Shown: positions 1,389 to 5,289 of the stretch, piece after piece
Numbering within the stretch: the stretch's first letter is position 1
Layout: every line of letters starts with the position of its first letter
IMG/VR virus record: IMGVR_UViG_3300020044_012721
Location: 1-5,289 of that record
Length of the DNA: 5,289 bases
DNA from: a virus
Direction: 5' to 3' (one strand)
Notes under the pieces: generated by a model
Database searches by the model: none
Seen by the model: only the letters and a program-made list of their open reading frames with translations
Told to the model about the DNA's origin: nothing
Translations under genes and position numbers: made by a program

Positions 1389-2095
1389 TGAACGTCCCTC
1401 TTTTGAATTGCGAACCATTCACCAACGGCCGGCCAGTAGGACGGCCACCACTCCCCCGTCAGACGGGAGAACCAACCCCCTCCCGGTGCACGCAACACGC
1501 GATCCTCGGGCATGCACCTTTCGCGCTGATAGCGCGGAAGAACCCACCACGTGCGTTCGAGCCTTGCGGCCGGTTCGAGGCCACCGAACCCGGAAAGACG
1601 ACAGCCACGCGGAAACCAAAGGCCATCGCTTGAGCGGCCCTTAGAGCAGTACTTAACGAGATACCCGACAGGCTTGCGCGCCCACTCAATGCGCGTCATC
1701 CCGTGAGGCCACCAGCCTTGCTTGTCGGGCTTTGGCATCGTGAGCCCAGGACGAAGCCAGAAAACGACGTGATAGTGGACGCGCCCGTTTTTCTGTAACT
1801 CCGCAACCCACACGTAGCGCGCAGCCTCGTTGCGACGCGCCAGCCACTTGCGAACGTGCATCAAGAAGTTGGAGACATGACGAGCGCCCCAATAGACGTC
1901 GGGCCGATAGGTGAGCGTTACCATGGCGGTTTTCACCCGGAACCCCGCCCCGGTAGTCTGTGACTGCAACAAGTCAGCAGACCGACTGACACTCTTGAAC
2001 ACCCGACCCAAGCGAGAGTCCCAAACAAGTGTCGGGAGGTTGTCGCCCTCCCCCGTCCCACTTGTTTGTGATCTGACAAGCCCAGTGGAGGTCAC
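1376..2095 (-). CDS. Rolling-circle replication initiator (HUH endonuclease superfamily, gpII-like), 239 aa
   Basis: GTG start at 2095-2093 with a strong GAGGAGG 7 nt upstream. The three RCR motifs occur in order: motif I MVTLTY (aa 58-63), motif II HUH as HYHVVFW (aa 107-113), motif III catalytic Tyr as YLVKYCSK (aa 145-152). An alternative start at Met58 cannot be excluded. Confidence 0.85.
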   Translation of the reverse strand: MTSTGLVRSQTSGTGEGDNLPTLVWDSRLGRVFKSVSRSADLLQSQTTGAGFRVKTAMVTLTYRPDVYWGARHVSNFLMHVRKWLARRNEAARYVWVAELQKNGRVHYHVVFWLRPGLTMPKPDKQGWWPHGMTRIEWARKPVGYLVKYCSKGRSSDGLWFPRGCRLSGFGGLEPAARLERTWWVLPRYQRERCMPEDRVLRAPGGGWFSRLTGEWWPSYWPAVGEWFAIQKRDVQCFA

Positions 2096-2340
2096 GCGTC
2101 TACCTCCTCTGTCGACGCCGCCGCCTCAGCCCGACGCACGCGCCTGAACGCCTCCACGAACTGCGACAGCTGCCCCCGCGCCATGCGTTCCGCTTCCTCG
2201 GGGGACGACGCCCACCCGAAAGCGACCGTTTGCGACTCGCGCAACGCGTTGCGAATGACGAACCCGTACCCATACCCGACCGGCAACACCCGCCACTCAA
2301 GCGGAGCGGCATCAGCGACCACGAACGGTTGCCACTTCAT
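2092..2340 (-). CDS. Hypothetical 82-aa protein, first gene after the intergenic region, translationally coupled to Rep
   Basis: Internal ATG (2340-2338) of track ORF 2092..2583, preceded by AAGGCGGGGG. Sequence: MKWQPFVVADAAPLEWRVLPVGYGYGFVIRNALRESQTVAFGWASSPEEAERMARGQLSQFVEAFRRVRRAEAAASTEEVDA. Its TGA overlaps the Rep GTG (GTGA at 2092-2095). The 81-aa N-terminal extension in the track is R/P/G-rich and runs through the structured intergenic DNA, so I rejected it. I recognise no family. Confidence 0.5.
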   Translation of the reverse strand: MKWQPFVVADAAPLEWRVLPVGYGYGFVIRNALRESQTVAFGWASSPEEAERMARGQLSQFVEAFRRVRRAEAAASTEEVDA

Positions 2341-2646: not shown

Positions 2647-2649
2647 AAT

Positions 2650-2687
2650 ATAGCTACCCCTAGCTATGGATAGCAACCCCTAGCGAT
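2650..2687. repeat. Two 20-bp-phased iterons / operator-like palindromes
   Basis: ATAGCTACCCCTAGC (2650-2664) and ATAGCAACCCCTAGC (2670-2684) match at 14/15. TAGC begins at 2651, 2661, 2671 and 2681, and TAG again at 2701, so the phasing is exactly 10 bp. Unit 1 is a perfect 7-bp inverted repeat, ATAGCTA-CCCC-TAGCTAT (2650-2667). Unit 2 is a degenerate copy, ATAGCAA-CCCC-TAGCGAT. Confidence 0.8.
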
Positions 2688-2762
2688 AGGTATTTGTACC
2701 TAGACCATGCTGACCGCCGGTACCGCAGGAGGTTTGTGCAACGTGGCGGACGCGAACCCGGC

Positions 2763-2790
2763 AGGCGACACGATATACATTATGCGAACT
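2763..2790 (-). promoter_or_regulatory. dif-like XerC/XerD recombination site (putative phage attP)
   Basis: Minus strand AGTTCGCATAA-TGTATA-TCGTGTCGCCT versus E. coli dif GGTGCGCATAA-TGTATA-TTATGTTAAAT. The XerC arm matches 9/11, the central region 6/6 and the XerD arm 5/11. Plus strand 2774-2788 reads TATACATTATGCGAA, which I recall as the attP/dif core reported for Xanthomonas filamentous phages. It is one of the two AT-rich patches in the intergenic region (the other is at 2506-2515). Confidence 0.75.
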
Positions 2791-2840
2791 CGCCGCCCGT
2801 TGAGGCCTGCGGCTTAGGACAAGGCAGACGGCTACGCCTC

Positions 2841-2860: not shown

Positions 2861-2891
2861 GGCGCGGGCCCGCTACGCGGGCCCCTGCGCC
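2861..2891 (-). other. Strong GC hairpin enclosing the pI/Zot stop codon (candidate packaging signal or non-canonical terminator)
   Basis: GGCGCGGGCCCGC (2861-2873) pairs with GCGGGCCCCTGCGCC (2877-2891): 8 + 5 bp with a 2-nt bulge. On the minus strand the stop codon TAG (2875-2873) sits at the hairpin tip, spanning loop positions 2875-2874 and the closing pair C2873-G2877. No T-run follows. Confidence 0.55.
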
Positions 2892-3961
2892 CCACCTAGT
2901 GGCGACGGAACGGGCTTAGGTGTCGCTGAACGTGCCGCCGCCGATTCGGGCTCCAGTGGAGCCTGCTGCGGCCCTTGTGACGCATCAAGGCGTCGTATGT
3001 TCTCGGCCTTCGCATCGAAGTCCGGCCGGGTCGGGTCAAAAATGCCGCGCTTCACGAAGGCGAGGCATTGCCGATATTCAACATCAATTTCAGCGCCGAA
3101 CTGATCCGCGCAACGACACTGCGGCGGACCCTTCCGACCGCCGATGGGCTCAATAACCATCGTCATGCAGCCGGCCACGCGTGGCGCCGTGATTTCTTGC
3201 GCGATCTCATCATAACGCGGAGCCGACCAGCCCCAACGATCAGACCGCGTACGAAACGCGGCCGGGTCCCAACGATTGGCAGTCCGATGCGGCTGCGCTT
3301 CCTGCTTGGCCGCAATCGTGGCGGTTTCGAGCTTGTCCCCGACCGGATCACGCAGCGACATGAAAGCCAACACACCGCACGCAATCGCCCCCACGACAGA
3401 ACCGCCAAGAATCGCCAGCTTCTTAATCGGTAGCTCTTTCTTGACCGTATGCATATCACTGGATTTGTACCAGCCGTAGCGTTCTTTCGGATACGGAAAG
3501 GACTCGGTTAACGCCAGCGATTGCACGCTGCGGTCATGCGGATCGACTTGCCTTTCCCACTGCCGGACGGTTGCCTTGTCCTGACCGAAGGTGCGCGTAA
3601 TGTGATAGTGCCGCCCGACCAGCTTGCGCACCGCGATGTCGAGCAGTTGCGGGTGCTGCGTTATCAGGTAGATATCGAAACCGCGATGCCGGTGCGTCTC
3701 AAATTCCGACACCCAACGCGGTACCTGGGCCCCTTGCTTGCGTGGCGGAAATACCCGTTGCGCCTCATCAATGACAACGATTGACCCGTCCGGCAAGTCA
3801 AACCAACTCGCAGGCTCATCGAGCGCCAACCACGGCAACACCAAATCCGGAATGCCGGACTGGTAGACGTTACGGCCGGACTCCTGCCGCAACTTTTCCA
3901 CCAGCCCCAACGTGTAAAGGGTTTTCCCGTTACCCGGTTGCCCCGTGACGAGAACGAGCAT
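2873..3961 (-). CDS. zot: Assembly/export ATPase, pI / Zot (zonula occludens toxin-like) family, 362 aa
   Basis: N-terminal MLVLVTGQPGNGKTLY contains Walker A GQPGNGKT (3920-3943), resembling M13 pI MAVYFVTGKLGAGKTL. Walker B is IVVIDEAQ (3758-3781). A single central TM segment, LAILGGSVVGAIACGVLAFM (aa 182-201), precedes a periplasmic C-terminal domain. The ATG at 3961 lies 1 nt after the upstream gene's stop (TAGcATG). Confidence 0.93.
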   Translation of the reverse strand: MLVLVTGQPGNGKTLYTLGLVEKLRQESGRNVYQSGIPDLVLPWLALDEPASWFDLPDGSIVVIDEAQRVFPPRKQGAQVPRWVSEFETHRHRGFDIYLITQHPQLLDIAVRKLVGRHYHITRTFGQDKATVRQWERQVDPHDRSVQSLALTESFPYPKERYGWYKSSDMHTVKKELPIKKLAILGGSVVGAIACGVLAFMSLRDPVGDKLETATIAAKQEAQPHRTANRWDPAAFRTRSDRWGWSAPRYDEIAQEITAPRVAGCMTMVIEPIGGRKGPPQCRCADQFGAEIDVEYRQCLAFVKRGIFDPTRPDFDAKAENIRRLDASQGPQQAPLEPESAAARSATPKPVPSPLGGAQGPA

Positions 3962-3962
3962 G

Positions 3963-4262
3963 CTATTGGAGCGTCAGACGCTTAAGTATCGGCTGCGCCA
4001 ACCCGCGCCACGTAATCACCGAGAAACCGGCCGACAGCACCACTTGCATAGCGTCATCAACTCGGGCCATGACAAGAATAGACAAGATCGACGCGCCAGC
4101 CCCGGACAGATTCGACCAAATGCCGGCCGTTACGGTATCCCAAAGCGTCGAGATACCGACGTACGCAACAATGGTAAAGCCGATGCCAACCAGCGCCCGA
4201 ACGACCAGCCCAACAATGGCCGTACCAAGCGCGGCCGTAATCGCTGCTGCGACAGGAATCAT
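3963..4262 (-). CDS. gpVI-like small integral membrane protein (minor coat / assembly), 99 aa
   Basis: Internal ATG (4262-4260) of track ORF 3963..4364 overlaps the gpIII-like stop as ATGA. Sequence: MIPVAAAITAALGTAIVGLVVRALVGIGFTIVAYVGISTLW...ILSILVMA...VVLSAGFSVITW. It is highly hydrophobic with about 3 TM segments. It sits between the adsorption protein and pI/Zot, as gpVI does in Ff phages and small hydrophobic proteins do in many Zot-encoding phages. Confidence 0.7.
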   Translation of the reverse strand: MIPVAAAITAALGTAIVGLVVRALVGIGFTIVAYVGISTLWDTVTAGIWSNLSGAGASILSILVMARVDDAMQVVLSAGFSVITWRGLAQPILKRLTLQ

Positions 4263-5289
4263 GATTTCACCACTCCACGAAAGACCATCAACGCCGCAAA
4301 GAAATAAGCGAAGGCCATCACCACCGGCGCAAACGTCGTTGCCATCGAGCAGGCCGGCCCCCACACGTTCAACGAATAGGCGTGACCGAAGACAGTAATC
4401 GAGAGATTGTCCGGACAGGACGCAGCCGACAGAGGCCCGTTAGCATCGACTGTGCCAATGTCCAACGGCTCCGGATCACCCAACGCTGTGCCGTCCATCT
4501 CCTCAGCCGAGAAGCCCATATCGCTCGCGGTCGCCCCATTCGGATCGACACAGCGATTCCGCCATGATTGATCGAGGATGGCGCACTCCATGACGTTACC
4601 GGAACACGTCGGCGGAGCGTCACACGTCACGCCCCCACTCGCTGAGTCATCAGATTCGTCGGGCCCCGTGCCCGTCCCTGTGCCCGTACCGGATGAATAA
4701 CCAGACCCACCGGCCGCACTGGTCGCACCCGGATCCGACGTCCCTGCCGCCGGCACCGCTGACGCATTGGCCGCAGCCGTAACGGTCGCGCTGTTATAAT
4801 AGTTGTATGTCGGTGAGCCCGTCGTGGTCCCCGCATTGTTCTGAACATCAGCGGTATAGGTGCGCGTAGGCGTGGCCGGAGTGTTGCGATTGCCAGCCGT
4901 CGAAGGGACCGGGGGCGTCGCGGCATCCGGACCGCAAACCACCTCACCCGACGCTGTAGCCTGACAGCCAGCCTTCGGAGTCTTATCGAGACAAATCCAC
5001 TTGTTATTCAGGTAGCCGCACTGGCCGCCCGTTTTCCCCATGCAATATTCGCCGAGGCATTTTTCCGGATCCTGAGCCCCCGCAGCGCCGCTATTAGAAG
5101 TCGGTAACGCTGGACTCGTCGGGCAATCAGACGTCGTAACCTGATACGTACCGATGCAACTTCCACCGAGACAAACAGCTACGGGAGTACGCGTCGCACT
5201 GCAATTAGACGCAGAATCACAAACCGACTTAGGAAGCGACGCCACGTTAGCCGCTTCTTTGTAATACTTGGTACCGACTGCGGCTTGAT
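4259..5289 (-). CDS. 3' part of the gpIII-like adsorption/minor coat protein gene; the full protein is 485 aa when joined to 548..1 across the junction
   Basis: The frame stays open from the track ORF start (GTG at 5245, an internal Val codon) to the right window edge. The Cys-rich N-terminal half is followed by a long low-complexity T/S/A/G/P linker (about 4631-4933) that includes GTGTGTGTG (4664-4690). After it come a four-Cys segment (aa 208-232 of track ORF 4259..5245) and a C-terminal hydrophobic anchor, ATTFAPVVMAFAYFFAALMVF-RGVVKS. This matches the M13 g3p plan. 548 + 910 nt = 1458 nt = 486 codons. Confidence 0.85.
   Translation of the reverse strand, partial: QAAVGTKYYKEAANVASLPKSVCDSASNCSATRTPVAVCLGGSCIGTYQVTTSDCPTSPALPTSNSGAAGAQDPEKCLGEYCMGKTGGQCGYLNNKWICLDKTPKAGCQATASGEVVCGPDAATPPVPSTAGNRNTPATPTRTYTADVQNNAGTTTGSPTYNYYNSATVTAAANASAVPAAGTSDPGATSAAGGSGYSSGTGTGTGTGPDESDDSASGGVTCDAPPTCSGNVMECAILDQSWRNRCVDPNGATASDMGFSAEEMDGTALGDPEPLDIGTVDANGPLSAASCPDNLSITVFGHAYSLNVWGPACSMATTFAPVVMAFAYFFAALMVFRGVVKS
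5169..5289. repeat. Right copy of the exact 121-nt terminal direct repeat (identical to 1-121)
   Basis: Same comparison as above. It fits either the overlap of a circular contig or the start of a second tandem phage copy. Confidence 0.97.

Follow-up and report, generated by a model that had tools for sequence, protein, structure and literature searches.

In Vibrio, Xanthomonas, Ralstonia, and Yersinia, toxins are moved and virulence is altered by phages that use dif for integration, and current work asks how XerCD becomes activated on the unusual attachment sites of these phages. For the Xanthomonas filamentous phages Cf1c, XacF1, and phiLf, a 15-mer has been published as the core of the Xer attP/dif site, and a Xer recombination site is annotated in phiLf. 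The sites read ACTTCGCATAA TGTATA GAGGGTGGGTA in Cf1c and XacF1 and AATTCGCATAA TGTATA GAAGGTGCCGT in phiLf. Integration at dif has been shown experimentally for XacF1 and phiLf-UK. XacF1 (ORF12) and phiRSS0 of Ralstonia solanacearum (ORF13) are known to have attP within the 3′ end of an HTH repressor encoded on the opposite strand. The relationship of phiRSS0 to phiRSS1 has been published; phiRSS1 is a repressor-less, free-phage derivative. DUF3653, the domain of XafT, was reported by Midonet et al. in all dif-integrated phages of Xanthomonadales.

XafT, described in 2019, combines an HTH with a DUF3653 domain and is encoded beside attP by TLCphi, a satellite phage of V. cholerae; TLCphi without XafT integrates below the level of detection. 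In a V. cholerae library, FtsK-driven integration tolerated only XerD arms very close to dif, and XafT-driven integration accepted almost any arm that kept T1 or G5, the latter being the base contacted by XerD. XafV was reported in a 2026 preprint, and the attP of VGJphi was found to be a poor substrate without it. IMEXs (integrative mobile elements exploiting Xer) that lack an activator have been reported to be trans-activated by XafT or XafV. The XafT-negative "CTX-II" Vibrio inoviruses (Commun Biol 2025, PMC12715192) are seen mostly where other IMEXs form an array with them, a sign that they may depend on their neighbors.

The window analyzed here is the whole of the 5,289-nt viral sequence IMGVR_UViG_3300020044_012721. 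Because its first 121 bases recur at its end (positions 1–121 = 5169–5289), it was taken to be a complete circle of 5,168 nt; its G+C content is 60.6%. Pfam was scanned ORF by ORF, and custom HMM profiles were run on all stop-to-stop segments in six frames. Every recognizable gene lies on the minus strand, and the Inoviridae core genes (pII, pV, pVIII, pIII, pVI, and pI) are all present. These are a rolling-circle replication initiator, Rep (pII-like; 1376–2095, PF23343, E = 6e-35), a ssDNA-binding protein (pV-like; 1113–1418, PF02303), the major coat protein (pVIII-like; 610–798, PF05356, E = 1e-16), a pVI-like minor coat protein (DUF2523; 3963–4262, PF10734), the Zot/pI assembly ATPase (2873–3961, PF05707, E = 1.7e-20), and a pIII-like adsorption protein. 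The gene of the last spans the circular junction, starting at 547 and running from 547 to 1 and then from 5168 to 4259, so that the N-terminal part with its signal peptide is found at 1–547 and the C-terminal part at 4259–5168. A small hydrophobic virion protein, ORF77 (801–1034, phrog_4644), is kept in relatives. On the strength of this gene set on a small circle, the phage is a complete small inovirus. Pfam detected no integrase, transposase, recombinase, or secretin among all sizeable ORFs and all intergenic ORFs. Rep is ~40% identical to Rep of Cf1c, XacF1, and phiLf. Zot is ~36% identical to that of Ralstonia phages and 52–57% identical to that of a swarm of circular 5–6-kb metagenomic contigs, the nearest Zot being 57% identical. 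A blastn search of the whole genome against 50,697 phage records gave zero matches.

The 778-nt intergenic region between zot and Rep contains a dif-like 28-mer, AGTTCGCATAATGTATATCGTGTCGCCT, which was found once in the genome, on the minus strand (2790–2763). It consists of a XerC arm, AGTTCGCATAA (2790–2780), a central hexamer, TGTATA (2779–2774), and a non-canonical XerD arm, TCGTGTCGCCT (2773–2763). A sequence-only reading had counted 9/11, 6/6, and 5/11 matches to E. coli dif (GGTGCGCATAA TGTATA TTATGTTAAAT) in these three parts, and the counts hold on direct reading. The same reading had named the 15-mer TTCGCATAATGTATA (plus-strand TATACATTATGCGAA, 2774–2788) as the dif/attP core of Xanthomonas filamentous phages. 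This was confirmed: an identical 15-bp core is present in Cf1c, XacF1, Cf16-v1, phiLf, and phiLf-UK (Inoviridae: Coriovirus and Lophivirus). The 15-mer has a single exact match in the genome, and a chance origin of the site was ruled out by shuffling, with 0 of 200 shuffled sequences containing the 15-mer even when one mismatch was allowed. The order XerC arm, center, XerD arm runs in the direction of the genes. The zot stop codon lies 82 nt upstream of the XerC arm, so that upon integration zot would be the last gene of the prophage and a regenerated dif would come next. The XerD arm retains T1, T4, G5, T6, and T11 of dif, and its inner half, TCGTGT, matches the TTATGT of dif at 4/6 positions, a closer match than is seen in the arms of Cf1c or phiLf. 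When the intergenic DNA was compared with all 240 loci, the common parts were confined to the Rep start and the dif core, which fits either an insertion of the site or a deletion of genes beside it. Judged by its sequence, the site is a putative attP of the TLC/Xanthomonas-phage design.

Two other types of attP used by filamentous phages were compared with this site. In a CTX-type attP, a forked hairpin is formed by two inverted dif-like sites in the ssDNA genome; one dif-like site is present here, and nothing further speaks for such an arrangement. A search of both strands with CGCATAATGTATA at up to three mismatches matched only the site at 2763–2790, XerD-arm-like 11-mers were no commoner in the genome than expected by chance, and the packaged strand folded around the site gave no forked hairpin with a partner site. 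These scans and the fold bear out the earlier observation that a second dif-like half-site is missing. The site is not CTX-like because the second site is absent, and the hairpin, now vanishingly improbable, was rejected.

VGJphi shares with the phage a double-stranded attP in a filamentous genome and a XerC arm that is nearly identical (ACTTCGCATTA). Its attP, taken from its record, reads ACTTCGCATTA TGTCGGC TTATGGTAAAA, however, with a near-canonical XerD arm (TTATGGTAAAA) and a 7-bp center (TGTCGGC) that is unlike dif and homologous on the XerC side only, whereas the site described here has a degenerate arm and a 6/6 center. VGJphi also carries ORF154, a DUF3693 repressor, and ORF136/XafV, with a weak DUF3653 match, at its site, and this phage has neither. 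The VGJphi-like XerC-first design suggested from the sequence is thus unlikely as stated: with its good XerD arm and foreign, non-dif center, the VGJphi attP is the reverse of this site, which is for that reason not VGJ-like. Within positions 6102–6900 of VGJphi (L240), ORF136 had a weak Pfam DUF3653 score, and ORF154 was composed of an HTH and a DUF3693 domain; VGJphi and Cf1c/phiLf thus have one two-gene module in common, with attP at its junction.

The Xanthomonas phages resemble this phage in their dif-matching XerC arm and center, in a non-canonical XerD arm with G5, in the orientation of the site relative to the genes, and in having no integrase. They differ from it in that an HTH/DUF3693 regulator gene on the opposite strand carries attP within its 3′ end, beside a DUF3653 gene, and in genome size (6.0–7.3 kb, versus 5.2 kb for this phage); the Zot of this phage is nearer to Ralstonia and Steroidobacteraceae elements than to the Xanthomonas phages. 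TLCphi is similar in its dif-like XerC arm and center, in a degenerate XerD arm with T1 and G5, and in that integration would be expected to leave the prophage between an attP-like site and a dif site. As in TLC-type elements, a bona fide XerD arm is lacking here, and the center, TGTATA, is the one that most dif sites have among the candidate host groups. TLCphi encodes XafT beside attP, whereas no homologue was detectable in this phage. In phiRSS0, a repressor in reverse orientation has attP (dif) within its 3′ end and the Zot family is related, but the Ralstonia dif sequence differs from that of the phage site. The CTX-II inoviruses can be likened to the phage by their published description: they target dif, have no XafT, and form prophages that end with zot, although they still begin with the repressor rstR and belong to another host group.

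To place the site among relatives, 239 loci encoding Zot relatives were taken from genomes, metagenomes, and IMG/VR and scanned for dif-like sites. At least 11 integrated relatives were found. At the Rep/repressor end, each has a site whose right arm is unlike dif, and a short way beyond zot each has a complete dif (TTATGT…). Xer recombination of dif with such an attP would be expected to leave just this attL/attR pattern. The Zot proteins of these relatives are 28–46% identical to that of the phage. In the nearest case, a Steroidobacteraceae MAG (L004/L007; Zot 46% identical), a 5-kb prophage is flanked by ACTTCGCATAATGTATA|TATTTTTCAGG and ACTTCGCATAATGTATATTATGTTAAAA, with ordinary host genes on either side. 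The others are located in a second Steroidobacteraceae chromosome (L009), a gammaproteobacterial MAG (L027), Lysobacteraceae (L047), Dyella (L048), Xanthomonas (L053), a Lysobacterales MAG (L054), Lysobacter (L055), Luteimonas (L059), Thermomonas (L067), and a metagenome contig (L083). The site of the phage has the same place, just downstream of zot, and the same orientation and design as the attP or attL of these relatives. The sequence-only reading had assigned the phage to the IMEXs. The support for this comes from homology, in that relatives are integrated at dif, and the phage combines a dif-like site with the lack of an integrase or transposase of its own; scans of 50,697 phage records, IMG/VR, and the Zot relatives turned up neither an integrated copy of the phage itself nor one of its hybrid junctions. 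The exact 21-mer of center plus phage arm was absent from IMG/VR, and a look-up of contigs encoding the exact Zot of the phage gave no record. Taken together, the 28-mer probably is the attP of a small integrative filamentous phage that mimics the host dif and brings no recombinase of its own.

The same relatives bear on a different function, in which the site would be a multimer-resolution site like plasmid cer or psi, with XerCD resolving replicative-form dimers and not integrating the phage. Xer sites are known from the literature to serve in this way on multicopy plasmids, and the phage replicates as a circular dsDNA form. The plasmid sites, however, have near-canonical XerD arms and ~200 bp of accessory sequence, none of which could be recognized here; relatives whose site has this design sit integrated at dif, and the closest relatives replicate without such a site. 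Dimer resolution as the role of this site is highly improbable.

The XerD arm had been described as degenerate and as raising a mechanistic question. The arm is indeed non-canonical, but a non-dif arm is the rule for the whole class: Cf1c, XacF1, and phiLf also have one, so that the "poor XerD arm" is the normal design. Among 25 distinct phage-side XerD arms, G5 was present in 20 (binomial p about 6e-7, a value that overstates independence because the sites are related) and T6 in 16. G/A at positions 1–2 and T at position 11 were likewise favored. By sequence comparison, then, the "degenerate" arm is constrained across many lineages, with G5 and T6 kept, and this conservation is what the V. 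cholerae library experiments would predict. The arm of the phage has both T1 and G5.

Each of the other attP-bearing relatives examined carried at least one of two companions, a DUF3653 gene and an HTH repressor that overlaps attP; the phage was the sole genome seen with a dif-like site and neither companion gene. No DUF3653/XafT/XafV-like ORF or HTH repressor was detectable in its genome. Pfam, including the DUF3653 model, gave no match to any intergenic ORF, and a custom DUF3653 profile run on six frames of the whole genome gave noise (best E = 0.23), although positive controls were recovered by the DUF3653 searches. Likewise, tblastn of ten repressor and DUF3653 proteins against the genome returned noise, bar one weak match at a 37-codon frame, and tblastn of VGJphi ORF136 and ORF154 returned noise only. 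The phage-encoded Xer activator that had been envisaged for this site therefore found no candidate of the DUF3653/XafT/XafV kind by Pfam, custom profile, or tblastn.

DUF3653 ORFs adjoin dif in phiLf, Cf1c, and the prophages of Lysobacteraceae, Xanthomonas, and Luteimonas (L047, L053, and L059) as judged by Pfam, and the custom profile added about 25 loci to these. Of the Xanthomonadales-type loci retrieved, nearly all have such a gene next to dif, so the likely host group is one in which helpers are frequent. Beside the dif of the Steroidobacteraceae prophage L004 is an HTH ORF whose DUF3653-like motif is borderline. Two other relatives, L009 and L083, are integrated singly with a repressor present and a DUF3653 gene not detectable, which suggests that an activator in cis is not obligatory.

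Three attP-bearing clade members (L172, L174 = L081, and L175 = L085 = L008) have an opposite-strand HTH repressor (HTH_3) that contains attP. The profile built from these repressors matched >60 other related loci, the phage genome not being among them. Its best match in the genome was a 37-codon open frame across the site (…NPAGDTIYIMRTRRPLRPAA; 2704–2814, plus strand), at E = 0.03. The frame (…AGDTIYIMRTRR…) weakly resembles the C terminus of the L172 repressor (…AGLDDLYIMRTRR…), about half of the match (YIMR) being forced by the dif sequence itself, and may be a decayed remnant of a repressor C terminus. The twelve closest relatives of the phage (L160–L171, mostly circular) had no dif-like site even at four mismatches and no repressor by profile search; the clade relatives that bear the site are slightly more distant and have different Rep genes. 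Phages L084 and L175 are 99% identical, yet the whole site falls in a 54-nt in-frame block of L175 (2276–2329, inside the HTH repressor gene) in place of which L084 has TTT (1769–1771). This difference suggests that the attachment site comes and goes as a small cassette. Its variability between phages that are 99% identical, together with its absence from the closest relatives, indicates that the site is easily lost, and in this phage it may be on its way out. The distribution of site and repressor and the L084 deletion further suggest that lysogeny equipment is patchy and mobile in the clade.

In the main rival reading, the same data are those of a relic, an integrative ancestor with attP in the 3′ end of an opposite-strand repressor gene having lost its lysogeny module to become purely episomal and "superinfective" as phiRSS1 is relative to phiRSS0. 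The absence of repressor and DUF3653 genes, when L172, L174, and L175 have attP within the repressor, would fit such a history, as would the weak resemblance of the frame across the site to a repressor C terminus, the lack of both site and repressor in the closest relatives, the missing block of L084, and the published phiRSS0/phiRSS1 precedent. The XerC arm and center are nevertheless intact over 17 bases, and the right arm keeps T1, G5, and T6; an intact site amid an unrecognizable gene remnant argues mildly for selection on the site and not on the gene. Moreover, phiRSS1 lost attP along with its repressor, whereas this phage kept attP. We consider loss of the module by an integrative ancestor unlikely, and equally unlikely the corollary that the site survives out of use since the deletion is recent.

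The remaining intergenic coding potential is limited to ORF82 (2092–2340, minus strand), the only ORF without an assignment between attP and Rep; it lies 423 nt from the site, and its stop codon overlaps the Rep start (GTGA). No homologues were found in relatives, Pfam, or PHROGs, and a search against 1.84 billion protein representatives matched ORF82 itself only. An AF2 single-sequence model (pLDDT 86.8) consisted of four strands and a long helix, for which PDB and BFVD gave no match at E ≤ 0.001. Lacking a homologue, family, or structural neighbor, ORF82 found no support as a hidden Xer activator.

An autonomous IMEX would need either an inner arm that suffices for XerCD/FtsK or a new, non-HTH Xer activation factor in the form of ORF82. 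The inner arm is nearer to dif (4/6) than in Cf1c or phiLf, and ORF82, an orphan with a confident fold, is coupled in translation to Rep and lies near attP. These points are countered by the distance of ORF82 from the site, its unlikeness to HTH proteins, the lack of fold similarity to any protein, phage proteins included, and the narrow arm tolerance of FtsK-driven integration in V. cholerae, and autonomy on either ground is quite improbable. If it were true, Xer-mediated lysogeny would need neither a repressor nor a DUF3653 protein, and the 28-bp site would be the sole lysogeny equipment of a 5.2-kb phage.

Other features of the large intergenic region could be recognized by their symmetry. 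Two tandem 20-bp near-palindromic units, ATAGCTACCCCTAGCTATGG and ATAGCAACCCCTAGCGATAG (2650–2669 and 2670–2689, within 2647–2689, minus strand), lie 74 nt beyond the XerD arm and overlap the sole sigma-70-like promoter match of the region, which points to ORF82/Rep. The stretch 2647–2689 is a candidate operator/promoter or origin element. G+C-rich hairpins at 2567–2584 and 2614–2646 are candidate origin or packaging-signal structures, a role we infer from the sequence.

If the 28-mer does act as attP, as we favor, the conserved left arm would be bound by host XerC, and the right arm would recruit XerD weakly and cooperatively through T1, G5, and T6. The 6-bp dif-identical center would let the exchanged strands pair with dif, making both exchanges possible. 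Integration would produce an attL composed of the host XerC arm, the center, and the phage arm TCGTGTCGCCT, beside the ORF82/Rep end, and would regenerate a complete dif after zot, so that host dimer resolution would be preserved. The expected junctions are NNNNCGCATAATGTATATCGTGTCGCCTGCCGGG joined to non-phage DNA (attL) and …GGGCGGCGAGTTCGCATAATGTATATTATG… (attR). As a poor substrate, the non-canonical arm would shield the prophage from FtsK-driven excision. We infer the use of this copy of the site and every catalytic step from rules carried over from V. cholerae and E. coli.

By analogy, integration may rely on a DUF3653 activator that another element, already resident at dif, provides in trans. 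This is put forward tentatively, because V. cholerae sites of such a design need an activator and because the VGJphi attP is poor without XafV. Failing a helper, a rare XerC-first exchange resolved by replication could provide an autonomous route, which is rather unlikely. The phage would then be either a minimal Xer-dependent element, helped in trans or dependent on rare XerC-first events, or a recent relic. Present evidence makes it an unremarkable representative of an established class and not a new mechanism. An attP accompanied by neither repressor nor activator makes it a handy natural test case for helper dependence in trans, and the Xanthomonas/TLC-type site design is extended to a new clade of ~5-kb environmental inoviruses.

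The hosts of this clade are probably Steroidobacterales or Xanthomonadales-like. The center TGTATA and the arm TTCGCATAA were found in dif sites from Steroidobacteraceae, Luteimonas, Thermomonas, Lysobacter, Dyella, Xanthomonas, and Stenotrophomonas, this arm being common to Steroidobacterales and many Xanthomonadales/Lysobacterales. The XerC arm AGTTCGCATAA itself occurs at the dif end of the Lysobacteraceae prophage L047. The nearest genome-borne Zot relatives belong to Steroidobacteraceae MAGs, of the order Steroidobacterales. These comparisons suggest that the host of the phage is likely a high-G+C gammaproteobacterium of the Steroidobacterales/Xanthomonadales neighborhood. The Xanthomonadaceae-like host originally put forward proved too narrow, because the arm spans several orders and it is Steroidobacteraceae that contain the nearest genomic relatives. 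A 6-kb sequence labeled as part of a Vicinamibacterales MAG (L008, DAIRVG010000258.1) is essentially the same phage as L175/L085. Binning has probably misplaced a free phage genome in an acidobacterial MAG here, and the label is thus unusable as host evidence.

Several arrangements were noted among the relatives in passing. The major coat protein gene, single in this phage, is present in two tandem copies in L161 (1168–1350 and 1365–1547), L162, L163, L165, L168, and L172. The record IMGVR_UViG_3300048838_000969 (L169) consists of two head-to-tail copies of a phage like L170, as a tandem prophage or the assembly of an RF dimer would. Beside the chromosomal dif of Stenotrophomonas sp. NPDC077420 (L069, 10776–13817) and Dyella marensis CS5-B2 (L072, 9125–12799), tandem units of ~1.5 and ~1.8 kb, respectively, are 99–100% identical to one another and look like arrays of miniature Xer-dependent elements.
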